This document shows positions 1,575-53,062 of a DNA stretch of 55,629 bases, one piece after another. The stretch is taken from positions 1 through 55,629 of IMG/VR virus record IMGVR_UViG_3300037247_000947; one strand, 5' to 3'. Source of the DNA: a virus. Its lineage: Duplodnaviria > Caudoviricetes. Positions within the stretch are counted from its first letter, which is position 1. Every line of letters starts with the position of its first letter. The notes beneath the pieces were generated by a model that worked only from the letters and a program-made list of their open reading frames with translations, searched no databases and had not been told where the DNA came from. Made by a program: the position numbers and the translations under genes.

Positions 1575-1594
1575 ACACCCTCCTTTCTGTAGCC

Positions 1595-3353: not shown

Positions 3354-4036
3354 CCCGACTCCAACAGTTCAAAAAGCGAGGCATCGTTCAATCCTACTCA
3401 CTTGGCCCGTACAACAAGTACAATGAGACTGAGCAATGGATTAGGATAAGCGAAGGCTGTCCCAATCATTGTGGATTCTGCTATGAGCCAAGAAAGGAGA
3501 AAGTCTTTCCTGTTCCGAGGATCATCCGAAACAAAGTCAAGATTATGGATATGAATCTTCTATCCAAGCCCGTAGCTCTTGACATTATTACCCAACTTGG
3601 AAACTACCGAGTAGATAAAAAAGTAATATACTATGAGCTTGTCTGTGGTATTGACTGGCGATTTCTCACCCAGAACATTGCAGAGGCTCTAAAGTATTCT
3701 CGCTTCAAGAAAATTCGCTTGGCTTGGGACTTTGGCTTCTCTCAACAGCTCAAAATCAAAGATGCGCTCACCCTCTTACTCAAGACAGGGTACCGACCAA
3801 AGGACATCACTATCTTTATGATATGCAACTGGCGCATCTCCTATGCCGTCTGCCTTAGAAAGCTCTGGCTCTGTGGAATCTGGAACGTCAAGGTCGCCGA
3901 CTGTTATTTCGATGGTCAGACCTCGCCAAATATTGACCCTATAAGTTGGACAGCAGAGCAAATCAAAAGTTTTCGTCGCCGTGTCCGTAAGCAAAATCAA
4001 CTCGTCAACTTTGGTATAGACCCAGAGGCAAAATGA
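3350..4036 (+). CDS. Radical SAM protein
   Basis: GCPNHCGFC (CxxxCxxC), MDMNLL, GIDWR, IRLAWD. Confidence 0.8.
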   Translation: MTRLQQFKKRGIVQSYSLGPYNKYNETEQWIRISEGCPNHCGFCYEPRKEKVFPVPRIIRNKVKIMDMNLLSKPVALDIITQLGNYRVDKKVIYYELVCGIDWRFLTQNIAEALKYSRFKKIRLAWDFGFSQQLKIKDALTLLLKTGYRPKDITIFMICNWRISYAVCLRKLWLCGIWNVKVADCYFDGQTSPNIDPISWTAEQIKSFRRRVRKQNQLVNFGIDPEAK

Positions 4037-5175
4037 CAAGATTAGAGCAATTTAAGAAAGTTTGCCAAAAGCACCTTGTCATAAAAGACACAACTTACAT
4101 AGACATAATCTTCGGAACCATCATGGCAAACCGTCTCGACTCAGACCCAGTATGGCTCTATCTCGTCGGCCCACCCTCATCCGGTAAAACAGTTGTCCTC
4201 CAGGCCCTTGCAGATACCGATGAAGCCATTCTCCGTGACGTCGTAACCCGTCCCTCTCTTATCTCCGGCTACATTGACAAGAAAACCAAAGTTGACAACT
4301 CCCTCATCCCTCTCCTCGATGGCAAGAATCTCATCATCAAAGACTTCACCACCATGCTCCAGATGCACTACAAAGACTTGAATGAAACCCTTGGTCTCCT
4401 CCGTGCTGCTTATGATGGTCGCTGCTGCTGGAGCTTTGGTGCCGGTCAAACAAAGGAGTATATCTCCAAATTCGGTGTCATTGCCGCAGTTACCAATGCC
4501 TTGGATGAACATCGCGGCGTCCTCGCCTCCCTCGGTGAACGCTTCGTCACCTACCGTATGCCGGACATCTCTGACTACGAAAAGTCTCGCCGTGCCCTCA
4601 AAGCAATGTCATGTCTTTCGACAAGTGGGCAGCGCCAGGAACTTGCCTCAGCCGCTATTACTATCCTTTCCTCCTCTCCCGAAATACCAGTACTTACCCA
4701 ACAGCAAATGCACTCTATCATCAAGATTGTTCAAGTTGCATCAAAAGCCTGTACCGCAGTTGTCAGAGACAAATATTCCAAATCAAAAGAACCTGAAATT
4801 CCTACTCCTCAACATCCCGCCCGAATGGCGAAAGAATTGGGAGACTTGGCGGTCGGAATTGCAATGGCCCGCAGCAAACCTCATATCACCAGGGATGAAA
4901 TCAAACTTATACAGCAGATGGCCCTCCACTCAATTACACTCAAGCGTATCAAGTTTCTCCACGTCTTACTCAATACCTATCCTGACTGGATAACTGTCAA
5001 TGATGTTTCCGAGGAGATGGGCTTTAGTGAAAACTCCGTTTCCCGCTGGTTTCAAGACCTCCTTCTCCTCAATATTGTCGAAAAACACATCGTATATTCA
5101 GGCCCAAAGTTGACAAAAACACATGAATTCCGCATACTCCAAGGCCAAATGTTGAAGCGAATCCTGTCAATCTAA
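4033..5175 (+). CDS. AAA+ (MCM-like) replicative helicase with C-terminal winged HTH
   Basis: Walker A GPPSSGKT, LIIKDFT Walker B variant, ERF Arg finger, PARM sensor II, C-terminal HTH-like segment. Confidence 0.7.
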   Translation: MTRLEQFKKVCQKHLVIKDTTYIDIIFGTIMANRLDSDPVWLYLVGPPSSGKTVVLQALADTDEAILRDVVTRPSLISGYIDKKTKVDNSLIPLLDGKNLIIKDFTTMLQMHYKDLNETLGLLRAAYDGRCCWSFGAGQTKEYISKFGVIAAVTNALDEHRGVLASLGERFVTYRMPDISDYEKSRRALKAMSCLSTSGQRQELASAAITILSSSPEIPVLTQQQMHSIIKIVQVASKACTAVVRDKYSKSKEPEIPTPQHPARMAKELGDLAVGIAMARSKPHITRDEIKLIQQMALHSITLKRIKFLHVLLNTYPDWITVNDVSEEMGFSENSVSRWFQDLLLLNIVEKHIVYSGPKLTKTHEFRILQGQMLKRILSI

Positions 5176-5222
5176 ATATAGGATTTTGACGAAACCCCCC
5201 TCAGGGCCTAAAAACGCCATAA

Positions 5223-5304
5223 TTAACCAACTAACCATTTAGGGGGAGGACACCCTTTAAAAAAAAAGTCAGTGTTAGGGGGTGCAATGTGGTTAGATGG
5301 TTAA
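5223..5304. other. Candidate replication origin
   Basis: 15-bp inverted repeat TTAACCA(A/T)CTAACCA flanking two TTAGGGGG boxes and an A-tract, just downstream of the helicase. Confidence 0.45.
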
Positions 5305-5326
5305 ATACAAGAAAGAGGGAGGCGAC

Positions 5327-5521
5327 TCAGTGTTGCACAATATCATCACTAAGCGGAACAAAACATTGGGACATACTAATAGGAAGTCCTTTCGCATTGT
5401 TCCAACCGATAGTGGTATATATCCAGCCACCAATAACTCGTCTAACTGAGATAGTGAAGGAAGCATCTTCAATTTTTCTAGATTCATGTAACTTCATCTC
5501 AACAAGTTCTCTTGCAGTCAT
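5327..5521 (-). CDS. Hypothetical protein
   Basis: GAAAGGA RBS; VRRVIGGWIY motif common in small phage proteins. Confidence 0.6.
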   Translation of the reverse strand: MTARELVEMKLHESRKIEDASFTISVRRVIGGWIYTTIGWNNAKGLPISMSQCFVPLSDDIVQH

Positions 5522-5544
5522 AATCTATTTCCTTTCAAAAGTGT

Positions 5545-5597
5545 AGGCGGCCCCACCTTTTGACGGGATCGGAGGAGGAGGGTAGATGGGGCCGCCT
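5545..5597 (-). ncRNA. Hairpin RNA with C-rich anti-SD/antisense loop
   Basis: Perfect 11-bp stem AGGCGGCCCCA/TGGGGCCGCCT; minus-strand loop CCCTCCTCCTCCGATCCCGTCAAAA. Confidence 0.55.
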
Positions 5598-5622
5598 GTT
5601 GTGAAGGAGGAGAGTGGTTCAT

Positions 5623-5883
5623 TTAACTTTGTATTATACCTACTCCTATTGCCGCAAAGATGTAAGCAGGGATTATTCCCACCTCACAGAACACAGCGCG
5701 TATAATGCCCCAGACAACAGCAGAATTATCAATACCCCAATTCTCTATTGCCGACATGATTCCACCATAGAGCATTACAAACAGGGACAGCCATATACCA
5801 AGGGCAATACTGGCCAAGATTATGACTACACCTCCAACTACTTTGAAAACATTTTGTAAATCATTCATCTCTTTTCCTTTCAC
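5623..5883 (-). CDS. Small membrane protein
   Basis: Two long hydrophobic segments. Confidence 0.6.
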   Translation of the reverse strand: MKGKEMNDLQNVFKVVGGVVIILASIALGIWLSLFVMLYGGIMSAIENWGIDNSAVVWGIIRAVFCEVGIIPAYIFAAIGVGIIQS

Positions 5884-6224
5884 TATTTAGTTTTCTGTTT
5901 TTGCTCCTTGCGTTTCTGATTCAGTGCGAGGAGTTTCTTGTAGAACCGTCTTGGCTCGTTAGTATAATCGTATGTCATATTTTCACAGCTAAACTGTTTG
6001 CCGACAAATTTGCCTGGACAGTTGCAACATCCTTCATCGTTTTGCTGCGTCGCATACTCACAGAAAAAACATAAAGCTGCTATTTCCAAGCAACGATGTT
6101 CCAGACACCACTTGTGTTTCAAGGCAGCAATGCACTGGATGGGGGATTCGTCAAGTTCTTTTATTATCCACTTCCACTGCCTAAGACACAACACCCATGC
6201 TTGATTCAATGTTAATTTCTTCAT
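5883..6224 (-). CDS. Cys-rich hypothetical protein (paralogue 2)
   Basis: CFFCEY...CCNCP...C motif. Confidence 0.7.
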   Translation of the reverse strand: MKKLTLNQAWVLCLRQWKWIIKELDESPIQCIAALKHKWCLEHRCLEIAALCFFCEYATQQNDEGCCNCPGKFVGKQFSCENMTYDYTNEPRRFYKKLLALNQKRKEQKQKTK

Positions 6225-6238
6225 CTTACTTTCCTTTC

Positions 6239-6562
6239 TCACTTACATTGTTTTATTTGTGCCAAGAACAGCTTGGCGTATTTCTTGCGGGTCTTGGGTG
6301 CTTTGGTACAACTCCATTTGCCATAGTAGCTTTTGCCACAGAGCATATCAAGTTTTTTGATAAGAGGGCAATATTGACAGGTACATCCATTGTACTTTTC
6401 TACTTGCTGTGAACCATACTCGCAAAACCAACAGTCATTGTATGTGTAATCGTATTCTACCCACTTAGGCCAATCCTCCTTCTTCTTCCCTGTCTTTGCC
6501 AGCCACGTCCAAAGCTCAATACAAAGTTCAATTGCTTTCTTTCTCGTCAACTTCATTTTCAA
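6239..6562 (-). CDS. Cys-rich hypothetical protein (paralogue 3)
   Basis: CWFCEY...CQYCPL...C motif; tandem with paralogue 2. Confidence 0.7.
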   Translation of the reverse strand: MKMKLTRKKAIELCIELWTWLAKTGKKKEDWPKWVEYDYTYNDCWFCEYGSQQVEKYNGCTCQYCPLIKKLDMLCGKSYYGKWSCTKAPKTRKKYAKLFLAQIKQCK

Positions 6563-6571
6563 TTTCTCCTT

Positions 6572-6799
6572 TCAATCAATAAAGTCCTGATTTCCAACAT
6601 AAACAATCTTCCTCCCTACCTTCTTAAATACCTCCTTGCACCACCCACAGAACCAGTCATCCCGCCACAACCTGCGAATGATATTGTGATTGCTACACAT
6701 GGGACACTGGGAGCGACAAACAAAAGCCTCCCTTTGGCTTGCCGTAAGCCCTCCTTTTAAGAAAGTACGTTTACGATCTTGTTCTTCTGTCTTTATCAT
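6572..6799 (-). CDS. Zinc-ribbon protein
   Basis: CPMC...CGWC. Confidence 0.6.
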   Translation of the reverse strand: MIKTEEQDRKRTFLKGGLTASQREAFVCRSQCPMCSNHNIIRRLWRDDWFCGWCKEVFKKVGRKIVYVGNQDFID

Positions 6800-7320
6800 T
6801 CTTCTATCCCCAATTCAATATCACTATCAATTTCGTTTCCCCATACGTCCCAACCAAGTGTTTTTTCTCTGGCAAACAACTCTACTCTATCTGCTTGAGG
6901 GAACCACTTCCTAATCCAATCGCGTACAATCGCTGGCTTTCTACTATGTTGTCCTCTCCGATGTCTTAACATCGATGAGACTCGGTATTTTGGAATCGGA
7001 GGTGAGAATTTGCCCTTTACACCAACAAGCAATATCTCATGTTGTCCTCGAAACCAGTATCCCATACCAATTATCTCTTTATCCCATACCATGCAAGTTC
7101 TATAATCAAAACCCCAAGCCATCATTACTTGCATTGCCTCTTCCATCTTTGGTGCAGTGGCCCACAGATATAGAACAGCGTTATCGGCACTCGGTACTTT
7201 GAGCGCCTTTATGTTCTCAAGTTTCATAGTAGGATATTGATTCTCAATCCTTCGACTATCAGAGGCACAGTGTCGATAGTTCCAAGGTGGATCAGCATAG
7301 ATAATCTGATACCGTTTCAT
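6796..7320 (-). CDS. MT-A70 family adenine methyltransferase
   Basis: IIYADPPW, LYLWAT, WGFDY, HSRKP, VELFAR, WGNE. Confidence 0.92.
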   Translation of the reverse strand: MKRYQIIYADPPWNYRHCASDSRRIENQYPTMKLENIKALKVPSADNAVLYLWATAPKMEEAMQVMMAWGFDYRTCMVWDKEIIGMGYWFRGQHEILLVGVKGKFSPPIPKYRVSSMLRHRRGQHSRKPAIVRDWIRKWFPQADRVELFAREKTLGWDVWGNEIDSDIELGIEE

Positions 7321-7323
7321 TTC

Positions 7324-7509
7324 TTAATCCTTCCCGAAAAAATCATCCTGGCACTTTTGGCACAGTCCAGAAATCTTAAATTCTCTCAAGCTAATGTCAT
7401 TTCTAAAGTCCGAGACAAAAATTACCTTTTTACAAAAAGGACACTTTCCTGCCTCTACTAGTTTCACGTGCTCGCCAAGTCCAGCTTGTTTCATTATTTC
7501 CTTGTTCAT
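7324..7509 (-). CDS. Small zinc-finger protein
   Basis: CPFC...SGLCQKCQD. Confidence 0.65.
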   Translation of the reverse strand: MNKEIMKQAGLGEHVKLVEAGKCPFCKKVIFVSDFRNDISLREFKISGLCQKCQDDFFGKD

Positions 7510-7769
7510 TTCGTAACCTCCAATCCCACCGTCAACATTCCTTTCGCCCGACTAACATAAAGAGCAACCTGTACCGGCATACCTTGTAATTTATCCAACT
7601 CCTTCTTGGCGTTCTCCATCGCTGACCTTGCCTTTCTTAGACTATTATCCTTGCTGTCATATCCCGCCGCCTTATCCAGACACTCCTTGCAAATCACAGG
7701 TTGTTCTAGTTCACACTCGTCAAAATAGCCTAAGCATCCCTCACATTGACCTCTGTTTTCTTCACACAT
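7506..7769 (-). CDS. Hypothetical zinc-binding protein
   Basis: CEGC...CKEC; overlapping start/stop with neighbours. Confidence 0.55.
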   Translation of the reverse strand: MCEENRGQCEGCLGYFDECELEQPVICKECLDKAAGYDSKDNSLRKARSAMENAKKELDKLQGMPVQVALYVSRAKGMLTVGLEVTK

Positions 7770-8079
7770 TCTTAGGCTCCTCTCTGGTCTTGGGCTTGGC
7801 TTTTGCAATCGCATCGTTCAAGAGCTTATCAAGCTGGTCTTTATCAATATCTTGAGGACGCATCTTACCACTTTGACAAGCATCGCGCAAAGTCTGTATA
7901 GTTTCACAGACCTGCAGCAAATCATCCCTCTGCACAATTGCTCTACCAATTCGGCTCGGCATTTCGTTCATAAATCGTATAGCCTCAGCATCAAGAGCAC
8001 TTCTGCCGAAATCAATACATTTACAAAAGTGTGCCCAACCATCGGCAAATTCTTTAGTAAGTTTTGATTCATTACTCAT
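7762..8079 (-). CDS. Hypothetical protein
   Basis: AGAAAGGA RBS before MSNESK. Confidence 0.6.
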   Translation of the reverse strand: MSNESKLTKEFADGWAHFCKCIDFGRSALDAEAIRFMNEMPSRIGRAIVQRDDLLQVCETIQTLRDACQSGKMRPQDIDKDQLDKLLNDAIAKAKPKTREEPKNV

Positions 8080-8217
8080 AATGTTTCCTTTCTCTATCCA
8101 GATTTGTCTTCGCAATATTCGCTCCAAACTCATAGTCCTTAGTCCTTTCTCTGTCCCGCCACTCCGCCAGCCAAAACCTCAGGCTCCAGAGCAATACTAT
8201 GATTGTTTCGGTTATTC

Positions 8218-8546
8218 TCATTTTAGTACCTCTTTGAAATCCAGTCTCTTAATTTTTCCTCCAAAACAATAACAATCGCTATCAAGTTTTGTTACGTGTC
8301 CCTCCCATTTATATATATACCTTTGCCATTGAGATTTTCACCAATATATTCCTGCATTTCTCCAAACAGCCAGGGCGAATCGCTTAGGCCCTTAAAGCCA
8401 GCATCCAGAAGCACAATATCTCCATATCCGCCATAAGCCCAAATCATATATCCTTTGTAGGAACGTCCTTTTTTAGGAGCAAGGTGTCCCCAGGTATCTT
8501 GTATTACATCTTGCCTTTTTCTTTCTGCATAAGCGTCAGTTATCAT
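8218..8546 (-). pseudogene. Hypothetical gene frameshifted in a (TA)5 run
   Basis: Removing one TA at 8310-8319 extends the ORF (GIYKWEGHV...EVLK) to a TGA overlapping the next ATG (ATGA). Confidence 0.55.
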
Positions 8547-8613
8547 TTTACCTCACTTTCACGCTAATCATTGTTATTTAAGGCTCCCACGTCCATCCTA
8601 AGAGCCTAAAAAA

Positions 8614-8796
8614 TTATTTAAGGGGCAAAGTACTATTATCTCTGGCTTGCTCATAAGCAGCGTCTATTTTTCGGGCTTGCTCATCAGCCAGACGTTCATC
8701 GCAAAACTCTTCATGGGCTTCAACGTCAGCGATTCTTTCGTCATCATCACTACCTTGTCCCACATATTGACACCAATTACATATTATAGTTGGCAT
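8614..8796 (-). CDS. Small zinc-binding hypothetical protein
   Basis: CNWC...H...C; AGGAG RBS. Confidence 0.55.
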   Translation of the reverse strand: MPTIICNWCQYVGQGSDDDERIADVEAHEEFCDERLADEQARKIDAAYEQARDNSTLPLK

Positions 8797-9139
8797 TTTG
8801 TCTCTCCTGTATTTTTTGATTATCTGGCAAACTGCACAATTTCACATCCCCACCGCAAATAGCCACAAAGTAACCTTTGGCGATTTTGCAGTCATATTCT
8901 GTGATTAGCTTACCGTTTCCATCTGGTTCCAGTGGTGGTTCGCCCCAAGTCCACTCTTCATAGTATTCGCATCTTTTTTCCGGCCTTTCAGTCTTTGGCC
9001 TTCTCAAATAACTATCCCGTCTCTTGTCGTGTCGATTGATAACATTATTACGACTACATTCCCTACACGCTCCGGTATGTCCTTCGATATACATTCTGCA
9101 AGTTTCCCACCAGCAACATTCACGCGGATTGACTTCCAT
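8777..9139 (-). CDS. Cys-rich hypothetical protein
   Basis: GAAAGGA RBS; multiple Cys. Confidence 0.55.
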   Translation of the reverse strand: MEVNPRECCWWETCRMYIEGHTGACRECSRNNVINRHDKRRDSYLRRPKTERPEKRCEYYEEWTWGEPPLEPDGNGKLITEYDCKIAKGYFVAICGGDVKLCSLPDNQKIQERQNANYNM

Positions 9140-9280
9140 CTTATTTCCTTTCAGCCTTGCTCTGTTCCTTCACAATCGAATAACAGGCAAAGTACCATAA
9201 CATCGTCTTTACTATGCCAACTATAAAGTTAAAATCCATAGGGCTGACCTCACTTTACACTGTGAGGCCGCCCTGCAAAT

Positions 9281-9769
9281 TTAGAATTTTGCTCGATAAC
9301 TTATTGCCTCTGCAACGTGTTCTGGCTTAATTTCTGTACTATCAAGTTTTGCTACGGCTTCTGCTATTTCAATTATTGTAACAAGTTCGCCGAGAGAAAA
9401 CTTTAGTTCTTGTTGGGCGTGCTTTAGCAGCTGTTGGCATGAGCTATCAAGGTCTTTATATTTAATATCTCTCTTACTGAATTGACCATCCACCCAGATA
9501 CAATCCTTGTGAACCTGTCGCAAATGGTTCTGATGATTCTCAATAGAAGATACCTCACAAGTGCATTTTCTAATCCGGCTGCCAAAAAAATTACAAGGAC
9601 AAGGTGAAACAAGTTGAACTACCTGGTTGCTCTTGCCAGTAAATTTCGTAAACAAAGGGTCGCTGGCTATCACAACCAGAGTCTTTTTTGCGACTTGTGC
9701 TACGTCTTGTGCGCGTTGTACCCCCGCAGGTAAGCTAATACTTATATACTTGTTTTCGAAAAGCGTCAT
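9281..9769 (-). CDS. Stand-alone C-terminal fragment of ComM/YifB (Mg-chelatase-like AAA+)
   Basis: PCPCNFFGS..KCTC zinc motif and IAEAVAKLD..IKPEHVAEAISYR lid; no Walker A/B. Confidence 0.8.
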   Translation of the reverse strand: MTLFENKYISISLPAGVQRAQDVAQVAKKTLVVIASDPLFTKFTGKSNQVVQLVSPCPCNFFGSRIRKCTCEVSSIENHQNHLRQVHKDCIWVDGQFSKRDIKYKDLDSSCQQLLKHAQQELKFSLGELVTIIEIAEAVAKLDSTEIKPEHVAEAISYRAKF

Positions 9770-9879
9770 TTTCAGTCTCCTATTCTGTTTGTCATTTTAG
9801 TTTCACAAAGGCCGTCCCGCAGTAGCTATCTCCGGCAAGAGCTATATTGACGGCCACTAATACAGATAAGACTCAAATC

Positions 9880-10242
9880 TTAACTTGCTTTCTTAAATGC
9901 GAATCCAGCATAACCGTTTTTCTCACATTCATCCTTGATCGACATAAGCCAATCTCTTAACTCTTGCGGAGCTGGTTGTATCTCTACCTGACATTCGACT
10001 AGCAACACTTGTTCGTGTTCGTCAATAGTTAATATCTTGCCATTTTTTCGGCAAATATCACATTTTGCCCCGCGCTTCTCTGCTTCTCGAATTGCGTCCC
10101 TTGTTAATATTCCGCCGTTGTGGTCAGCAGCATAGACCACATGGCGCAGCGTGATACAATAGGGATGTGGTATTCCGATTGTATCAATAATTGTGAAATT
10201 GCCATCTTTACTTACTCCATACTCGCCTTTTACATCTGACAT
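9880..10242 (-). CDS. Hypothetical phage protein
   Basis: GAAAGGA RBS; IGIPHPYCIT...CDIC motif. Confidence 0.65.
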   Translation of the reverse strand: MSDVKGEYGVSKDGNFTIIDTIGIPHPYCITLRHVVYAADHNGGILTRDAIREAEKRGAKCDICRKNGKILTIDEHEQVLLVECQVEIQPAPQELRDWLMSIKDECEKNGYAGFAFKKAS

Positions 10243-10309
10243 AATACACCTGTTTCCTTTCTGTGTCTTATCTGTATGTAATTTCAAAAGAACAATTATA
10301 TCGGCCTTA

Positions 10310-10549
10310 TCAGCCGACAAGTTTTCTAATCAATTCTACTGCATCTTTGCCAAACTTGCGATCTATTGCCTGATAGGTACTTTCATTCTTTTCTGGAGCT
10401 ATCCACTCATCAAATGCAACAACGTCAAATCCTAATGCAACATTAGGGAAAAATGTAAACAGCCGAACGCCGAACATCCTGATAAACGGCATATTGTAGG
10501 TAAGCTGTTTATTTCGTTCTTTTAGAAAATAGTCCTGCATCGTTTCCAT
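10310..10549 (-). CDS. Hypothetical early protein
   Basis: GGAG RBS; in early operon. Confidence 0.6.
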   Translation of the reverse strand: METMQDYFLKERNKQLTYNMPFIRMFGVRLFTFFPNVALGFDVVAFDEWIAPEKNESTYQAIDRKFGKDAVELIRKLVG

Positions 10550-10592
10550 TTTGCTTTACTCCAGTTTATCGGCATAAACTACGACCGACAGT

Positions 10593-10757
10593 TTAGTCTT
10601 TTATCATAATCTCGGCTGCGAACATATCGAGTAACGTCTGTTCCAGCTTGTCGACCATTATGTCCATAACCTTTTGTGCTTGTTCTTGTGTAAGCGCATC
10701 TGTTTCAACTTCTTGGATCGGCCAACCTTCAATGAGTTCTATCTTAATACTTGCCAT
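10593..10757 (-). CDS. Hypothetical early protein
   Basis: ATG 10757 preceded by leader TTTGACGGGAGTAAATCA. Confidence 0.6.
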   Translation of the reverse strand: MASIKIELIEGWPIQEVETDALTQEQAQKVMDIMVDKLEQTLLDMFAAEIMIKD

Positions 10758-10758
10758 T

Positions 10759-10943
10759 TGATTTACTCCCGTCAAATACCTCAGTCAATATATTCCCATT
10801 TTACTGTTTGCTTGAAAGCTGCCATCTCGGCTTCTTCTTCACTGTCAAAAAACTGGGACACTTCGCCCTTATTATTCCGAAGATAATACCGACCGTCCCT
10901 TACTTGTGCAATTTCATAATACATCTGATTTACTCCCGTCAAA
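10759..10943 (-). repeat. 18-bp direct repeat forming identical leaders of the first two early genes
   Basis: TGATTTACTCCCGTCAAA at 10759-10776 and 10926-10943. Confidence 0.85.
10781..10924 (-). CDS. 47-aa first early protein (not in ORF track)
   Basis: MYYEIAQVRDGRYYLRNNKGEVSQFFDSEEEAEMAAFKQTVKWEYID, with the same leader as the next gene. Confidence 0.6.
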   Translation of the reverse strand: MYYEIAQVRDGRYYLRNNKGEVSQFFDSEEEAEMAAFKQTVKWEYID

Positions 10944-10974
10944 AAACATTTGATTTACTTTATCCGTCTATAAG

Positions 10975-11002
10975 GTTATAGTCAAAAACCCTCAAAAGTC
11001 AA
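10975..11002 (-). promoter_or_regulatory. Sigma70-type early promoter
   Basis: TTGACT-16 nt-TATAAC with AT-rich upstream element. Confidence 0.65.
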
Positions 11003-11321
11003 GTGATAAAATCATTTTGTTGTGAAAATAATACCTCACGCACTTGAATTGATGAAAATAGTTTAGACCGATAGACTATGGACACTTGGTAAGTAGGACT
11101 AAAGAGAAGGATAGCCTGAAAAATGATAAGAAAAGTATCTGCCAAGCGTAGGTAGTCTGGAACTTAGATAGGATAGATAGTGGTTTTATGCGTAGAATTG
11201 CCGTTAGTCCCTTAGATTGGACGTGCGGGGCTGGAATGACCATTGTGTATGGTAGTTGATGTGGCGTTGTAAAGTGATAATAACGATGGATTGTGATATG
11301 ATTGTCAAATAGGATAGTAAA

Positions 11322-11549: not shown

Positions 11550-11722
11550 TATCTATTCTCCTATTCTGGATATAGTCTATCCATAATGTCTGGTTAGTTC
11601 CCGATATTCTGGATACAGTATGTCTGGTATTATATACGAAGGTCGGTAGGGCGCCTTCGGACGGGGGATAGCTTGCTGTGGTACCATTGTATGGCTGAGA
11701 CTATCGAAGCTGTTTTTACCTT

Positions 11723-11926
11723 TTAGTCCTCTGTACAAGGTTTCCACGTTTTAGCTGTACTGCCAAACAGGAGTTTCGTAGCTTTCCTCTCCTTGGCTGT
11801 TAGTGCATGTCTCTTGGTATAGCCACATTCCCCACAGGTAAGTTCCATTCTGTCATAGAGACAGTCAAGAAGGGCTGATTTGAATATATGGCCTTTGTCA
11901 ATACACTTGCCATAGTCTTTAGTCAT
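11723..11926 (-). CDS. Hypothetical zinc-binding protein
   Basis: C...H...CGECG; coupled to upstream gene. Confidence 0.55.
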   Translation of the reverse strand: MTKDYGKCIDKGHIFKSALLDCLYDRMELTCGECGYTKRHALTAKERKATKLLFGSTAKTWKPCTED

Positions 11927-12284
11927 CTGACTTTCCTTTCAAAACTTGTTCAATGACCCGAAGCGCATAATCCCTTGTTTCTCCACAATCATTTATTGCT
12001 TCCCCGGCTCTACATTCAGGGCACTTTTTGTGAGGCGGATTCAAGTCACAATCACCGGTGCAATTATCCTGGTCGGCAAGAACCCATAGTCGTTCATAAT
12101 CCTTATATCTTTCTTCAACGTCTGGCTGTTTTTCGAGAATGGCAATAGCTTCACCTACCAACTTAAACATATCTTGCATAATCCATTTGTAAGTTTGATT
12201 TGCATCTATTGAATCATAATGTTTAATGCGAGCATCTTTGGCTGAGTCCTCTGCTTCTTTCAATTTATCTATCGCTTCTGACAT
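11919..12284 (-). CDS. Hypothetical protein
   Basis: GAAAGGA RBS; CTGDC...CPEC. Confidence 0.6.
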   Translation of the reverse strand: MSEAIDKLKEAEDSAKDARIKHYDSIDANQTYKWIMQDMFKLVGEAIAILEKQPDVEERYKDYERLWVLADQDNCTGDCDLNPPHKKCPECRAGEAINDCGETRDYALRVIEQVLKGKSDD

Positions 12285-20180: not shown

Positions 20181-20189
20181 TGTATCCTC

Positions 20190-21674
20190 TCAAAATAACT
20201 CAAGCCAGTTCATTGATATAACACTGTCAACATTTCCACTTGATGATTCAAGACTAACAGTAAGCGTTTCGCCCGGATTGAGTTTTTCCATTACCTTAGT
20301 GAAATCAATTATAGGGGCCGCTCCCTCAGTTATGATTTGTGTAAATACAAGAGTCCCGCCCGAAACCGCAGTGGCAGAGTTATCTGTACGGACAACAGAC
20401 GTATTAGCATCAACTGCGGAAAATGAAGCTGCTGTAAGTGTAGCATTAAGCCTTACTCTGATTGTCGATGGCTTGTTTGCACTAGCAGAATCTATTGAGG
20501 CGGTAAAGATAGTAGGCTCTACTCTTACGCGATTTATCTTGCTTTGATATACGGTATGGTTGTGGATTGAAAATAAAGGTGTTTCATCCGTTCCAGTGGC
20601 GGAGTCTTCGGCAGTGATATTATTTACTATCCCCTCTTCTAAGTCCTTCCCCTCAATTGCTCCCATCATGGAAGCTGACTCCAAGACTATATTAGTAGTA
20701 TTGCTTGTATTTGCTACCGCCATGCACACTGGCAGAGTAGGATTGTCCAATGATGGTATAGTGTTGGCATTGGCATATTCTATCCTATGGACTAAGACAA
20801 ACCTTCCTGTTGAGGGATTCTCAATATAAAACTCAATAGCTCCAAATCCGAGCCATTGATAGCGGATTTCAAAAACATTTCCATTTGTAAATGTCAGACT
20901 TGGTAAAGTCTCTGCGCCCGCCGCTTTATCTGCACTCCAAGCAGTCTGTGCTTTGATTGTTTCTGTCGGGGCCACTCCTACAACGCTTCGTGCAAATGTT
21001 CCTGCTGCTGATGTAGCGGTAGTTATTTCGTAAGTTCCTGTCTGTGACGCGGCGTTATAAGACTCAAAGACAATGTTTGGCCCCATTGAATGAGCCTTCC
21101 AGCCCTGACCAACATCAGAATAATCATGGTTGGCTATCTCATTAGCGGTTAAAGTTCTTGTACTGGTATTATCCGCAACTTGGGCTGTTACAACCACTGC
21201 GGCACCAGTTGAGTCTCCATCAAGAGTTATTTCGATACTTTCTGCATCCTGCGAAGCTGCTGATATTGTAAGTGTTCTAATCTCAGGCGAGCCACCTTGT
21301 CGTCTTAATATTCCGAAGGCAGTCCCATTGTAGCCAAAGAAGTATCCCTCTGACGAAGTCCCTATGCCGATATACTGAGTGGAATTTGCCGCTCCCGCTG
21401 TAAATACACCCGTTCCTCTCCATAGTCCTCCTTGGCCCGCATTGTACTTGACGGCTATTCTCGAAAGCAAGGAAGATGACCGATTAGTTCCAGAACCAGT
21501 TGAAACCTTGAACTTGTTATTATTTATAGACGAGGTTCCCTTGTTGTCTCGCGCCTCCATTATCCTGGTATTGATATTATAAGCAGAATGAACTTGGACT
21601 ATCGGAGTGAGTTCCGCGTTTAACATCTCTCCAAAGGCCGTCTTTTGGTTCTCAACAAAAGGATTATAACTCAT
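20190..21674 (-). CDS. Tail/virion beta-rich structural protein
   Basis: S/T/N-rich; YQWLGFG motif; TAATG coupling with the fibre gene. Confidence 0.65.
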   Translation of the reverse strand: MSYNPFVENQKTAFGEMLNAELTPIVQVHSAYNINTRIMEARDNKGTSSINNNKFKVSTGSGTNRSSSLLSRIAVKYNAGQGGLWRGTGVFTAGAANSTQYIGIGTSSEGYFFGYNGTAFGILRRQGGSPEIRTLTISAASQDAESIEITLDGDSTGAAVVVTAQVADNTSTRTLTANEIANHDYSDVGQGWKAHSMGPNIVFESYNAASQTGTYEITTATSAAGTFARSVVGVAPTETIKAQTAWSADKAAGAETLPSLTFTNGNVFEIRYQWLGFGAIEFYIENPSTGRFVLVHRIEYANANTIPSLDNPTLPVCMAVANTSNTTNIVLESASMMGAIEGKDLEEGIVNNITAEDSATGTDETPLFSIHNHTVYQSKINRVRVEPTIFTASIDSASANKPSTIRVRLNATLTAASFSAVDANTSVVRTDNSATAVSGGTLVFTQIITEGAAPIIDFTKVMEKLNPGETLTVSLESSSGNVDSVISMNWLELF

Positions 21675-27178: not shown

Positions 27179-27209
27179 AAAAAAGGCTGCCTAAGCCAAG
27201 CAGCCTTTT
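27179..27209 (-). terminator. Intrinsic terminator (possibly bidirectional)
   Basis: AAAAGGCTGC...GCAGCCTTTT with A/T tracts on both sides. Confidence 0.65.
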
Positions 27210-27242
27210 AGAAAGGATACCAATATGAGTCAGTTTATTATG

Positions 27243-27326
27243 TTACTTCTTCTTTCCCTTACTGGTACTGGGTTTCTTGTGACCTGGTTTGCTCTTGTAC
27301 GTGCTTTTTCCTGATTTATGAGCCAT
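27243..27326 (-). CDS. 27-aa lysine-rich peptide
   Basis: MAHKSGKSTYKSKPGHKKPSTSKGKKK with GGGAG RBS. Confidence 0.5.
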   Translation of the reverse strand: MAHKSGKSTYKSKPGHKKPSTSKGKKK

Positions 27327-27376
27327 TATTTGCTCCCTTCAAAAAACACATTTAGTAACTTTTATGTTGGACGACA

Positions 27377-36059: not shown

Positions 36060-36098
36060 AAAAAATCAGGTGAGGCACTGTAAGTACCCCACCCGATT
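36060..36098 (-). terminator. Intrinsic terminator after major capsid gene
   Basis: ATCGGGTGGGGTAC-TTACA-GTGCCTCACCTGAT followed by T-tract. Confidence 0.7.
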
Positions 36099-36145
36099 GA
36101 TGAAAGGAAAGAGAGTAAAGAAAGGAGAAACTGTTCCTTGTAATG

Positions 36146-37522
36146 TTAGCTTTCCGAGATGTCATACCCCTTTGCCTGGCGGTATGCGTCAAAGCAAACA
36201 AAATTGACATACTGAACGGCAGCAGCAAACTTATTGTCCCCAGTATGGCTCTGTACAAGGACATTGCCACCGTCGCCAAGCACCCACTCGATAGGTGAAT
36301 TCTGGCAAAAGGCAAAGTCAGTGGTATTGATAACAAACAGAGTATTCTGAGGACAGGCACCGAGCGAGGTCAATATCAATTGATACTCACCAAGCTGCAC
36401 CCCAAGTCTCGTATAACCACCGACGAAACTCATCGGCCCGACATTGTTAAACCTTCTGTCGTCTTTCTTCTCAAGGAAGTATTTGTTCTCCGCCTTGGGA
36501 GTTGTCAATAGAAGGTTAGGCTGGGCCTGCCGTGCAAACTGCAAGTCCATCATCAATGCCGTCATGTTTTCTTCGTCAAGCCTTGCACTTGCAAAGTCCT
36601 TCATTAGACTCTGGAGATACCAGAAATTTGTCCTTGTCAATCCCCATATCGAAGTATAGTTACTGGTAGTCTCGGAGTTATTTGAACCATCCGAGACAAG
36701 ATTGGCAAGTCCGTTAATCTCCTGGATATTTGCATACGTCACTGCTGAAGTTCCGGCACTACCATACGCCCCTTCTCGGAAGAAGAAGTCACCGACAGCT
36801 ACGTTGGTACTTCCGGCTTCATTGTAAGTTGCACCGGCAGAGTCATTTATAACCATCACGGAAGTTCCGTTGTCCAAGTCCTGTGAAGTTCTGCTATCGA
36901 CAATAAAGGTCGTCAGTGCTGAACCGGAGTTGTTATGCCCAGTACTGTCAAGACCACTGGAGTCAAATGTTCCGCTCTCCAGCCTTGCCCCGATAGGCAT
37001 GAACATATCGGCAAAGTAGGGTGCCTGTGGGAAGCTGGCATTAGTCACGGTAATACTGGTATTGGGACTAATTGCCGAGACTCTTCCAACATAGCCACTG
37101 GCATCACCCATTAACATTCGGTCAAAGTTACTCTTAAACGCCCTGATGTTGGTCCTGAAACTTTCAGTAACAACATTGACGGCACTCTTCATACCAGAAT
37201 TAGCCGCCTTGATAACCGGTCCTGTCAAAGCAATATACGAGTTTAGATACTTGACATTCTCAGTCATCTGCTTGCCCTTGATAGGCACGTTAGTGACCCA
37301 GTTACCGCCCTCGGCAATCGTACCAACGCCCTCAGCCCTCTGTGTACTCGCCCAATGGACGATGTGGTTTCCACCACCAGGGATAAGGTCGGTACGGGCC
37401 TGGATTAAGTCGGTAAAACTGGGGTCATCATAGGCAACGTGCTGCATCGTAGGCAAGTAGACCTTCTTCAACAGACCATCTAAATTGGTCGAGTTGGTAA
37501 GGTTACTTATAGTTGTAGCCAT
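36146..37522 (-). CDS. Major capsid protein
   Basis: LLKKVYLP N-motif, MGDASG, INGLANLV; order portal-scaffold-MCP with terminator. Confidence 0.8.
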   Translation of the reverse strand: MATTISNLTNSTNLDGLLKKVYLPTMQHVAYDDPSFTDLIQARTDLIPGGGNHIVHWASTQRAEGVGTIAEGGNWVTNVPIKGKQMTENVKYLNSYIALTGPVIKAANSGMKSAVNVVTESFRTNIRAFKSNFDRMLMGDASGYVGRVSAISPNTSITVTNASFPQAPYFADMFMPIGARLESGTFDSSGLDSTGHNNSGSALTTFIVDSRTSQDLDNGTSVMVINDSAGATYNEAGSTNVAVGDFFFREGAYGSAGTSAVTYANIQEINGLANLVSDGSNNSETTSNYTSIWGLTRTNFWYLQSLMKDFASARLDEENMTALMMDLQFARQAQPNLLLTTPKAENKYFLEKKDDRRFNNVGPMSFVGGYTRLGVQLGEYQLILTSLGACPQNTLFVINTTDFAFCQNSPIEWVLGDGGNVLVQSHTGDNKFAAAVQYVNFVCFDAYRQAKGYDISES

Positions 37523-38597: not shown

Positions 38598-40724
38598 TTA
38601 GGAGCCAGTTGCTCTCGACGGAGCAGGCTTGGCATCCTCTTTTTCTTCTGATGATTCCAAATCCTCCCTCTTAATCACTCCCGTAGCAATTGCCTGTCTT
38701 ATTTGCTGCTCGGCAAGTATCGTTGAATGCTGCATCCAGTGCACCTGCATCGCATTGGCAATTACAATCATCCCTGGGTCGCCAGTCCCAAGGTATTCAA
38801 AAAACTTATCTAACAAATCATTCTTATGCTCTATGACATGAACTTCGTGGTTGTCAAAAGGATTGACTGCCGGAAGGTAAATTCCCTTTACAGCTTCCTC
38901 GGCAGGAACTCCTTGTTTAATCATCTGGTGATACTGTTTAACAGGGATTTGGAATTCCTTTTTGGCAAAGTTCACATCCTTGTTATTATCTTTCAGTATC
39001 CTGTCCAGCCCACCAATATCAATCGTCTCAAGAACTCTCTTTCTTACTGTCGGGTCGGATGGGTTCCCCAAGACCCCCTGTTGCAACAGTACCAATGCAA
39101 GGTCTCTTTCCAGTGCCCGACTAATCGGCATTGAAGACCCAGTCCTGATATTGACATTGAACTTTCCATGAAAGGACTCTGGGGAGAATTCAAACATCAC
39201 CCATTCATTGTCCTTACCGATAATATTCAATGTCCTCTCACGGTAGTTGGCAAAAGCAATTGACAGAAGTTGTCTTATCGCTCGTTCATCTTTCCTCTCC
39301 ATCTCTGTGATAATCGGGGAATGTTGTGTCTGACTTGCTTCCTGTAGCAATGCAATCCCAACTCCTGACTTCGGCCCTCCCACCGGTCTCTTGCCTTGAG
39401 CCACCATCGGAAAACTAAATATATCATTTATGTCCGAGACAATCTCCTGCTGATAAACAAAGAGCTGTCCAGATACCGGAACCCCTGCCTCTCGATGCGG
39501 CCTATACGACCCATCATATTCAACGATAAGCCCAGGCCCGTTATCAAGTCGTGATATATTTATCTTTCCTTCCCTCGGAACTGTCCAAAGCCCACTTCCT
39601 AAGGTACAGGTGTTCTCACGAATCAAAGTCCTGATATCATTAAGCTCATCCTGTAGTGGCCTTGCCTGTGATATTCGACTTGCAGTTCCGGCAACTGCCT
39701 TGTCCGGTAACATCATGTCATAAGCAGTAAAGGGAACCTCGCCATGGGGATACTGCTCGATAGGATATGGCACGTTCTGCATTACCACGCCATTTTCAAG
39801 ACCGGCCATTACCCAGTATCCCCCCAGAGGATAATTACTGTCTCTCACCTGCCAAGCTTCATATATCATTATAAGCTTGTCATCGGTACTCATCTCCCCT
39901 GTATCAATCCTAATAGTTGTCCCCGCCAAGCCGGTCGTAAACTGCTCAAATTCGTTAAACAGTTTTATCTCAAACTCACTCTGGCCGGAACTTGGGTCGA
40001 TAAACTCCGATTCAGGTATCAAGTCTGCCTTTTCTTCCCATCTAATCCTTGCCTCCGCCTTTGTCATCGGAGAGGCATGGATTATCCAAGGCAACCTATC
40101 AGTGTTCTGTCGCCAGTCGTAAATCAACTCATTGGTCGGGACAAACTCTGATATTGCCTCCCCCTGATATATCGGTGCCCCTGGCTCCATCTCAGGATTA
40201 TGCCCATCCTGTTCCGGCTCAGGATTATGACCAATCAATTTATAGAATGGGTCCCACCACTGTTTCCTCCAGCCAATAGCAGAGATGTCATACCACAGTA
40301 TTATCTTTCCCCTCTGAGTATCAAAGTCATTCAACCGCCTTAGATATGACAACATCTTCTCGGCAGCAACCGCCGTTGCCTTGTCGTTCTCATCGGTACT
40401 GTCAGGCGTGACGTCAAACTTCGGAGGTACCTTGGTTGCAAGAGCAACGTCGTTTCTCACGGCAGGGGCCAACTTATTCACTGTAGAAGTAAAAGGACTC
40501 AAGTTAGTCCTTCTTACAATATGGCCGCCACGAAGTCCGAGGTGCTGATGTCCACATAGGTATGCAATATTAGCGTTCCACTCGACAATCCTACTCCGTC
40601 TAAAGGGATTAAAAGTCTTGACACGGGACTTTATAATCGTCCTTACTGCCTCATCCTTCGGAGATGTCGTCGGACTTGCCGATGTCTGTAGAACCACTTT
40701 CTTTGGCTTGAACTCTTGAGTCAT
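38598..40724 (-). CDS. Portal protein
   Basis: 708 aa; NIAYLCGHQ, VNKL, PLQDELN, SGVGIALL, DNHEVHVIEH. Confidence 0.85.
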   Translation of the reverse strand: MTQEFKPKKVVLQTSASPTTSPKDEAVRTIIKSRVKTFNPFRRSRIVEWNANIAYLCGHQHLGLRGGHIVRRTNLSPFTSTVNKLAPAVRNDVALATKVPPKFDVTPDSTDENDKATAVAAEKMLSYLRRLNDFDTQRGKIILWYDISAIGWRKQWWDPFYKLIGHNPEPEQDGHNPEMEPGAPIYQGEAISEFVPTNELIYDWRQNTDRLPWIIHASPMTKAEARIRWEEKADLIPESEFIDPSSGQSEFEIKLFNEFEQFTTGLAGTTIRIDTGEMSTDDKLIMIYEAWQVRDSNYPLGGYWVMAGLENGVVMQNVPYPIEQYPHGEVPFTAYDMMLPDKAVAGTASRISQARPLQDELNDIRTLIRENTCTLGSGLWTVPREGKINISRLDNGPGLIVEYDGSYRPHREAGVPVSGQLFVYQQEIVSDINDIFSFPMVAQGKRPVGGPKSGVGIALLQEASQTQHSPIITEMERKDERAIRQLLSIAFANYRERTLNIIGKDNEWVMFEFSPESFHGKFNVNIRTGSSMPISRALERDLALVLLQQGVLGNPSDPTVRKRVLETIDIGGLDRILKDNNKDVNFAKKEFQIPVKQYHQMIKQGVPAEEAVKGIYLPAVNPFDNHEVHVIEHKNDLLDKFFEYLGTGDPGMIVIANAMQVHWMQHSTILAEQQIRQAIATGVIKREDLESSEEKEDAKPAPSRATGS

Positions 40725-45383: not shown

Positions 45384-45410
45384 AAATTTCTATTGCAACC
45401 TCCTCCTCCT

Positions 45411-45444
45411 AAAACCCCATTCCAAGACGTGAGTGGGGTTTTTT
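45411..45444 (+). terminator. Intrinsic terminator
   Basis: AAAACCCCATTC...GAGTGGGGTTTTTT. Confidence 0.75.
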
Positions 45445-45486
45445 ACTATAAGTCCTAATTAACTAAATGTCCAAACGAGAATGTGT

Positions 45487-45514
45487 TTGACATCAGCCAA
45501 AGATATGTTAGTTT
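45487..45514 (+). promoter_or_regulatory. Promoter of replication block
   Basis: TTGACA-16 nt-TAGTTT with TG extension. Confidence 0.6.
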
Positions 45515-45544
45515 GTTATTTGGTTAAACAGAAAGGAACCAAGG

Positions 45545-48717: not shown

Positions 48718-48878
48718 AATGTAGAGAGCTGTTTCGACCTCATCCGTTTATTGGAATGAGGCATCCAAGTAACGCAAAATGTCCCAAGTGCGGAGCAAAA
48801 GGTAAGCTAACTAAAAAAGGTAGAAAGGCACGCAAGAGCCGATTTGGCGCAATGAACCAAAGACGGAGGAAATCTTGA
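48699..48878 (+). CDS. FmdB-like zinc-ribbon protein
   Basis: FECIKC...F...CPKCG. Confidence 0.6.
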   Translation: MEFECIKCRELFRPHPFIGMRHPSNAKCPKCGAKGKLTKKGRKARKSRFGAMNQRRRKS

Positions 48879-53029: not shown

Positions 53030-53062
53030 ATGGTACTGATAAAGTTTGAAAGGAGAATCAAA

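Follow-up and report, generated by a model that had tools for sequence, protein, structure and literature searches.

An intercistronic hairpin with an anti-Shine-Dalgarno-like loop in the small-gene block of an uncultured phage

Known anti-Shine-Dalgarno loops and the phage locus

In phage P1 the regulator lies upstream of its target, and the C4 RNA, in work of 1990 credited to Citron and Schuster, reportedly pairs through loop sequences with a ribosome-binding site (RBS) in the same transcript. C4 has been characterized as a phage antisense RNA that is needed for full repression of ant and is directed at genes of its own operon (PMC8198154). Loops of another kind define the cuckoo family, whose members are described as two to four adjacent hairpins with an anti-Shine-Dalgarno (anti-SD)-like motif in their loops, the loop motif being CCUCCUCCC, the hairpins 24-50 nt and the loops 9-27 nt long (PMC4615179). 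The CcsR genes have been linked to a DUF1127 gene context in a further report (PMC8034643). Anti-SD-like sequences have also been placed in B. subtilis reporters, and according to that study they are depleted from genes and can pair with an RBS that lies hundreds of nucleotides off, the effect having a measured range of ~0.5-0.8 kb, declining with distance and being lost when the sequence is enclosed between two pairing segments (PMC12697547).

The locus described here lies in a virus genome that is complete on one contig of 55,629 bp, and this whole stretch is the window of our analysis. The genome holds phage genes, namely a P22-type portal (38598-40724) and a family A DNA polymerase (48875-50140), and its sequence has been found in one marine-sediment DNA sequencing run, the probable source of this uncultured phage; no RNA run with the phage sequence has turned up among the sequencing runs searched. 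The genes form two arms. The plus-strand arm extends from 44531 past the end of the sequence to 5175 and includes the replication genes, while the minus-strand arm runs from 44420 down to 5327 and comprises the structural genes followed by ~9 kb of small genes. The hairpin sits in the 101-nt spacer between the penultimate and the last gene of the minus-strand arm. The penultimate gene (5623-5883, minus strand) encodes a hydrophobic product of 86 aa (81 aa from ATG 5868) that has no Pfam or PHROG match. The last gene (5327-5521, minus strand) lacks its own promoter in the 23 nt that follow the stem, and its 64-aa product is an orphan, which among 5.8 billion proteins has no homologue and matches itself only.

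Several features of the same arm have been observed in passing. Two adjoining minus-strand genes (5883-6242 and 6239-6562) encode small Cys-rich proteins that look like paralogues by eye, and the 162-aa protein of 9281-9769 (minus strand) matches the C-terminal domain of Mg-chelatase/ChlI-like ATPases (E 2.7e-07). Where the arms converge, the minus-strand region 5170-5335 folds well (z = -2.61) and is without a canonical terminator; the CU tract that follows the last gene pairs there with a G run ~115 nt downstream, and a second copy of CGUCAAAA is present in the minus RNA of this convergence spacer at 5191-5184.

A stable hairpin and its exposed loop

The RNA hairpin (5545-5597, minus strand) corresponds to the inverted repeat I6, the arms of which (5545-5558 and 5584-5597) are 14 nt long, 93% complementary and 25 nt apart. 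In the minus-strand RNA, AGGCGGCCCCAUCU (5597-5584) pairs with AGGUGGGGCCGCCU (5558-5545). The initial annotation had claimed a GC-rich stem of 11 bp, and these 11 perfect pairs, ten of them G-C, have been confirmed; U.G, C-G and U-A pairs follow, extending the stem to 14 bp with 11 G-C pairs in all. The fold of the minus RNA over 5625-5522 has been calculated at -32.3 kcal/mol (z = -3.63), with 1 of 200 shuffled sequences as stable, and in a scan of both strands the hairpin is the most stable of the genome, with -27.4 kcal/mol as minus RNA and -31.9 kcal/mol as plus RNA.

The 25-nt loop, ACCCUCCUCCUCCGAUCCCGUCAAA, carries two segments of note. The first, UCCCGUCAAAA (5558-5568, minus strand), is complementary to the leaders of two distant genes and has a predicted unpaired probability of 0.76-0.85; its eleventh base, A5558, also forms the top pair of the extended 14-bp stem. 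The second, CCCUCCUCCUCC (5571-5582, minus strand), is an anti-SD-like pyrimidine tract with a predicted unpaired probability of 0.89-0.94, and the motif CCUCCUCCUCC, which had likewise been claimed for the loop, is found within it at 5581-5571. Across three context sizes, the two segments are predicted to be 0.76-0.94 unpaired. A second anti-SD-like tract, CUCUCCUCCUUC (5603-5614, minus strand), precedes the hairpin, beginning 8 nt past the stop codon of gene 5623-5883 and ending 5 nt before the stem. On the other side, the 3' flank ACACUUUUGAAAGGAAAUAGAUU (5522-5544, minus strand) holds a short run of four U, which begins 5 nt past the stem, together with an RBS of the TTTGAAAGGA type that belongs to the last gene. 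According to both the MFE structure and the partition function, UCCUUCA of the 5' tract pairs with the SD of gene 5327-5521, which is predicted to be 0.32-0.38 unpaired in the three context sizes. An H-type pseudoknot between UCAAAAG of the loop and CUUUUGA of the 3' flank, picked out by eye, has been rejected on geometry, because 3 nt would need to span the 14-bp helix.

The spacer might alternatively be coding. A 34-aa ORF (5518-5622, minus strand) would place the hairpin inside a translationally coupled mini-cistron or a read-through extension, and its frame is indeed open with exact junctions, the ATG coming right after the in-frame TAA of the upstream gene and the end forming an ATGA overlap with the last gene. 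We regard this as very improbable, as the ATG is without an SD, the predicted peptide is of low complexity, not protein-like and without homologues, and an open frame of 34 codons is, by our estimate, not rare in a C-rich stretch.

The hairpin could also owe its presence to the opposite strand or to the DNA itself. Read in the plus direction, the loop is an RBS-like cassette, TTTGACGGGA, followed by GGAGGAGGAGGG, the ATG at 5586 and a 39-aa ORF (5586-5705); variants of this idea would see in it a GGA-rich protein-binding loop or the inverted, functionless remnant of an RBS cassette. The plus-strand RNA equals or exceeds the minus RNA in predicted stability, with the -31.9 kcal/mol given above and a 13-bp stem, TTTGACGGGA lies within a recurrent RBS cassette, and the ATG has a strong SD-like run 3-4 nt upstream. 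The 7-mer TTGACGG, too, is in excess on both strands (15 copies vs 5.4 ± 2.1 in shuffled sequences, 0 of 100 reaching 15). Many of the TTGACGG copies lie inside genes, and an effect of codon usage may contribute to their number. Opposed to a plus-strand role are the lack of an upstream promoter-like site on that strand within 5400-5560, the minus-strand coding skew of the region, the burial of the ATG in the stem and the nature of the 39-aa and 81-aa ORFs, which lie opposite a gene whose RBS is typical and do not look like proteins. Altogether, we hold such a role to be improbable.

The duplicated leader and the weight of its match to the loop

The loop 11-mer UCCCGUCAAAA (5568-5558) is perfectly complementary over its whole length to 10944-10934 and over its first ten bases to 10776-10767, which bears out the earlier claim of exact 11-nt and 10-nt matches, both overlapping an SD. 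Both targets include the GGGA of a GGGAG SD that stands 8 nt before the start codon (ATG 10924 and ATG 10757). The first is part of the leader/RBS (10922-10944, minus strand) of the 47-aa gene 10781-10924, with the 11-nt target UUUUGACGGGA at 10944-10934, the SD at 10937-10933 and the ATG at 10924-10922. The second is part of the duplicate leader/RBS (10755-10776, minus strand) of the 54-aa gene 10593-10757, with the 10-nt target UUUGACGGGA at 10776-10767, and the two leaders have 22 nt in common with one mismatch. Promoter-like hexamers lie upstream at 10957-11003 (minus strand), read as TTGACT-17-TAAAGT in the scan and as TTGACT-17-TATAAC by eye, and a gene-poor gap of 150-400 nt is found at 10925-11321. 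Because of this promoter-like site and the gap, it is reasonable to take 10781-10924 and 10593-10757 as the genes with which a putative early operon opens.

Among the RBSs of this phage an architecture recurs, TTTGANNGGA, to which the duplicated leader belongs and of which the genome holds 13 copies vs 3.84 ± 1.88 in shuffled sequences, with 0 of 100 shuffles reaching 13. At least 7 of these 13 copies are placed at RBSs, including that of the last gene itself and that of a 27-aa ORF (27243-27326); the sites include 5530-5539, 10767-10776, 10934-10943, 11934-11943, 20185-20194 and 27334-27343 on the minus strand and 53045-53054 on the plus strand. The cassette has the form of a U run, GA, two variable bases and GGA, and it may represent a U-rich enhancer joined to the SD. 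The 5 copies of the motif TTTTGACG (2.0 expected) are no significant excess, 9 of 100 shuffles having at least as many. As a separate observation, an unlisted, very basic 27-aa ORF (27243-27326, minus strand; MAHKSGKSTYKSKPGHKKPSTSKGKKK) has a leader-like RBS, UUUUUUGAAGGGAGCAAAUA, before its ATG and a terminator of its own.

Pairing between loop and leaders is thermodynamically feasible in the model. The duplex energies have been calculated as -15.8 and -14.9 kcal/mol, and the opening costs as 1.9 kcal/mol for the loop, 1.7-3.3 kcal/mol for the first leader and 5.3 kcal/mol for the second, leaving net energies of about -11 and about -8 kcal/mol for leaders 1 and 2, respectively. This complementarity is the basis of an antisense feedback, in which, after transcription of a unit of ~5.4 kb, the loop segment UCCCGUCAAAA would shut the RBSs of 10781-10924 and 10593-10757, either on the RNA of which it is part or, after processing, as a stable fragment. 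Exact complementarity of 11 and 10 nt over the SD, a loop predicted to be accessible, favourable net energies and the position of leader 1 near a probable 5' end all speak in favour of such a switch, and P1 C4 RNA offers a precedent for a phage antisense RNA acting in its own operon (PMC8198154).

The weight of the match depends on how often loops of this kind would reach it by chance. For a loop taken as 31 nt and shuffled with its composition preserved, an uninterrupted complement of 11 nt or more to any of 94 RBS windows (-30 to +6) arises in 58 of 5000 shuffles, a scarcity that counts for the feedback. A complement of 10 nt or more arises in 235 of 5000, and when all sense RNA is taken as the target, 206 of 1000 reach 11 nt or more. 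Real hairpins provide a second background: among 466 sense-strand hairpins with a stem of at least 8 and a loop of 12-40, the loops of 20 match an RBS window over at least 10 nt and those of 3 over at least 11 nt, the present hairpin scoring 10 in this comparison because its eleventh base sits in the extended 14-bp stem. When the 94 RBS windows are ranked by duplex energy, the leaders come 7th (-18.1) and 9th (-17.6). The best target of the loop is the RBS of gene 7324-7509, with an energy of -25.3 and 16 loop bases paired around a 3-nt bulge; this gene belongs to the same block and in that respect adds to the case for feedback, and an energy as good is reached on some RBS by 31 of 200 shuffled loops. 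Since the two leader matches represent one duplicated sequence, they count once and are not independent. The leader match is thus a 1-5% event for the loop, it has been identified post hoc, and its ends, the U run and GGGA, are generic RBS architecture. Its statistical weight is modest.

These points, namely the post hoc choice of the match, the 20 of 466 real loops with at least 10 nt, the rank of the leaders as 7th and 9th of 94, the single duplicated origin of both targets and the generic ends, stand against a feedback switch. So does the span of 5.3 kb, over which pairing in cis would be costly, and in the B. subtilis work the anti-RBS effect declines with distance and vanishes between pairing segments (PMC12697547). 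We therefore judge the dedicated feedback to be unlikely.

Regarding conservation, blastn of 5200-6200 and 10500-11300 has given no match among 50,697 phage records, and single-protein scans of IMG/VR with the helicase and with the portal have found no relative; the portal protein has just 13 distant matches, with an identity of 23% or less. The helicase-like gene 4033-5175, which neighbours the spacer, has 92 homologues (best identity 73%). A profile built from 34 helicase homologues has led to 160 loci, 80 from metagenomes and 80 from IMG/VR, where tblastn with the 17 minus-strand ORFs that lie between 5327 and 10924 has found no match at E <= 1e-4. A search with the MT-A70-like methylase 6796-7320 has led to a further 80 loci, which belong to unrelated phages and in which, of 21 proteins of the window, only p2347 and one weak m7324 match have been found. 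Locus L081 is the closest relative, its helicase being 73% identical to the neighbouring one of the phage; the 17 small minus-strand ORFs, the leader motif and an equivalent hairpin are all absent from it, its small-gene set and spacer differ from those of the phage, and its intergenic region gives no alignment with the window and no Rfam match. L081 has a strongly structured spacer of its own, 285 nt long and placed before its last minus-strand gene (11630-11930, minus strand; z = -3.38), which is closed by a long stem using CCUCCUAAC and then U6.

The leader 11-mer is present in 0 of the 240 loci, and the leader 18-mer has 0 matches in IMG/VR. Hairpin, leader and flanking genes are kept by no relative found, so that the relatives searched offer neither conservation nor covariation of leader and hairpin, a further point against the feedback. 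Two candidates have been set aside. The loop 21-mer has 2 exact matches in bacterial MAG contigs (L241 7852-7872; L242 7560-7580, where identity to the loop region extends to 28 of 29 bases with one indel), and these have been rejected as chance. Both lie inside coding sequence of unrelated MAGs, one in the gene of a PP2C phosphatase and the other in that of an endonuclease/exonuclease/phosphatase protein, and both specify the peptide FDGIGGG. In L121 and L122, a hairpin whose loop holds CCUCCUCC has been rejected as well, being antisense to plus-strand genes.

Gene-end layout and comparison with known systems

Three terminators of the genome pass the strict test, and they have a layout in common with the hairpin spacer, in which a stop codon, a CU tract, a GC hairpin and a U run come in this order. 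A CU-rich tract within 5 nt before the hairpin is present in 3 of 3 (45399-45410, 36102-36130 and 27210-27217). On the plus strand, CCUCCUCCUCCU, predicted to be unpaired, stands directly 5' of a canonical intrinsic terminator (45399-45444; arms 45411-45422 and 45431-45442, then a U run). On the minus strand, two 14-nt CU tracts (36130-36117 and 36115-36102) precede the terminator that follows gene 36146-37522 (whole feature 36064-36130), which itself has a 16-bp stem, a 3-nt loop and U6 (36098-36064). The third, after the 27-aa basic ORF (27179-27217, minus strand), consists of UCCUUUCU, AAAA, a 9-bp terminator hairpin (27205-27185) and U6. Further CU-rich tracts have been observed at 1578-1588 (plus strand) and 5309-5322 (minus strand), 3-4 nt after the stops of genes 933-1574 and 5327-5521.

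Sense-strand CCUCC is concentrated in gene-end spacers, since 9 of its 11 intergenic copies fall in 5176-5326, 5522-5622 and 45384-45544. CCTCCTCCTCC has two exact copies, one in the hairpin spacer and one at 45399; each is intergenic, sense-oriented and next to a hairpin. Tolerating one mismatch raises the count to 5, vs 1.07 ± 1.05 in shuffled sequences, 0 of 100 reaching 5. Pyrimidine runs are otherwise three times rarer in sense than in antisense orientation across the genome (42 vs 121). Two related loci, L102 (5221-5262) and L098 (12189-12237), likewise have sense CCUCCUC(C) just 5' of a terminator. By a rough count, 7 of 81 terminators in relatives have CCTCC in the 30 nt before them (2.4 expected), as do 6 of 74 from phage loci that are unrelated (1.4 expected); in at least one case, in L096, the CCTCC is an RBS of the opposite strand read in antisense. 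The association of CU tracts with terminators has n = 3 in the genome, is weakly general and is in part accounted for by antisense RBSs. In L098, a separate plus-strand unit (12091-12260) has been noticed, with a consensus promoter (TTGACA-17-TATAAT), a leader of ~100 nt with CAUCCUCCUC and a terminator hairpin with U6, followed by an RBS and a small gene; it is attenuator-like or sRNA-like in a related phage.

The reading that we prefer, tentatively and with somewhat less than even confidence, is that of a cis-acting, terminator-like or stabilizing intercistronic module which also masks the SD of the last gene, the leader match being a by-product of anti-SD/RBS composition. It is founded on the top genome-wide rank of the hairpin, its z of -3.63 and the layout of the three terminators, on the gene-end clustering of CCUCC, the CCTCCTCCTCC copies and the relatives L102 and L098, and on the predicted SD pairing and the generic nature of the target motif TTTGANNGGA. 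Two defining features of terminators speak against it, as the loop is 25 nt long and the run of four U comes late. On the polycistronic minus-strand mRNA that we infer for the small-gene block, the module would lie between 5623-5883 and 5327-5521, where it may attenuate transcription and/or block 3'-to-5' decay and would thereby govern the balance between upstream operon RNA and that of the last gene. The hairpin would in addition clamp the 5' CU tract (UCCUUCA) onto the downstream SD (AAGGA), so that initiation on the last gene would be reduced; the predicted masking is weak, the model giving 7 pairs with a bulge across an internal loop. The pyrimidine tracts of the loop would be of the same anti-SD-like kind as the CU tract, and the 11-nt leader match most likely reflects anti-SD/RBS composition meeting a recurrent RBS cassette and no dedicated feedback switch. 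Taking into account that an 11-nt match to an RBS is a ~1% event for the loop, a dedicated function of the segment is nevertheless conceivable. The probability that is left after all readings discussed here falls to the hairpin having no function at all.

A broader role has been considered for the same tracts. The hairpin might be a general anti-SD riboregulator or sponge of the cuckoo/CcsR or C-rich-loop kind, whose exposed CCUCC would pair with many phage or host SDs without a dedicated target, and together with the CU tracts such 3'-end RNAs would damp initiation broadly. Both exact copies of CCUCCUCCUCC are in sense orientation and predicted to be unpaired, in a genome with the low count of sense pyrimidine runs given above (42 vs 121). 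The cuckoo family is itself defined by anti-SD-like loops (PMC4615179), and anti-SD-like sequences repress SD-led mRNAs at long range in the B. subtilis study, which also reports their depletion from genes, so that their retention here suggests a use (PMC12697547). The hairpin has a weak full-length match to the Rfam family CcsR1 (RF02791), with 18.4 bits against a gathering threshold of 65.3 (E 0.02-0.08 for the region only); the score is far under the threshold and not significant genome-wide. There is, moreover, a single hairpin, and the RBSs of the phage hold at most a short GGAG(G) core, which leaves the long anti-SD motif without a matching target in the genome. A sponge of this kind is therefore unlikely in our estimation.

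Returning to the preferred terminator-like or stabilizing module, the hairpin resembles intrinsic terminators and intercistronic stabilizer or attenuator hairpins in having a GC stem at a gene end followed by U residues, and its 14-bp stem with 11 G-C pairs (-27.4 kcal/mol) is as GC-rich as a terminator demands. It differs from intrinsic terminators in that these have loops of 3-10 nt and an immediate U tract, whereas here the loop has 25 nt, the tail is ACACUUUUG and four U start 5 nt after the stem; in addition, a gene without its own promoter follows 23 nt after the hairpin. The hairpin is absent from both the consensus and the strict terminator scan. The genome-wide Rfam search has given no family at or above its gathering score, and a tRNA/tmRNA search has found none.

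With cuckoo/CcsR (RSs0680), the hairpin has in common that its loop shows the anti-SD-like CCUCCUCC and is of a size within the family range. In the CcsR1 alignment, the GC stem and the CCUCCUCC loop fall on the second hairpin and the 5' CU tract on the first loop motif. Compared with the family definition, CCCUCCUCCUCC in the loop has 8 consecutive letters of the cuckoo motif and not the 9-mer, the loop measures 25 nt and the hairpin 53 nt, slightly above the upper bound of 50 nt, and one hairpin is present in place of two to four, the upstream CU tract not being in a hairpin of its own. The setting is a phage operon, not the alphaproteobacterial context after a DUF1127 gene. Because of the single hairpin and the score below threshold, we liken the locus to cuckoo/CcsR without assigning it to the family.

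The long-range anti-SD systems of S. aureus icaR and B. subtilis, with pairing of the 3'-UTR-to-5'-UTR kind inside one mRNA, are similar in that a far-downstream, pyrimidine-rich sequence of the transcript is complementary to the SD region (PMC3868564 and PMC12697547). These have been tested up to ~0.8 kb, whereas here ~5.3 kb (5568 to 10934) with ~19 genes lie between, so that anti-SD and SD are not within the measured range. The anti-SD sequence is further enclosed in a hairpin loop, and such enclosure abolished the effect in one reporter (PMC12697547). The B. subtilis results make a role of the tracts plausible and at the same time speak against a closed loop acting in cis over 5.3 kb. What is of wider interest is that anti-SD-like tracts, repressive and depleted in bacterial genes, are here kept beside every terminator hairpin of the phage.

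A further comparison is the P1/P7 c4 RNA (RF01695). Its model gives no match, neither genome-wide at the gathering score nor, for the region, at E <= 10. The locus does have, as c4 has, an exposed sequence complementary to an RBS of what would be the same operon (11 and 10 nt; 76-85% unpaired), provided that both lie on one transcript. In P1 the regulator is upstream of its target, and here it is 5.3 kb downstream. If the loop silences the leaders, the regulator would stand at the far end of its own unit, and transcription time would set the delay, a layout that is not described for phage antisense RNAs in the literature searched. Extending this thought, 3' ends may carry translational brakes that report operon completion, with a bipartite loop made of the generic CCUCCUCCUCC and a specific 11-nt anti-leader segment; once the ~5.4-kb unit is finished, the loop would pair with the duplicated cassette and with the RBS of 7324-7509 (16 pairs). 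We consider this unlikely, and it would amount to a c4-like antisense logic in which the regulator is placed at the end of the operon instead of at its start.
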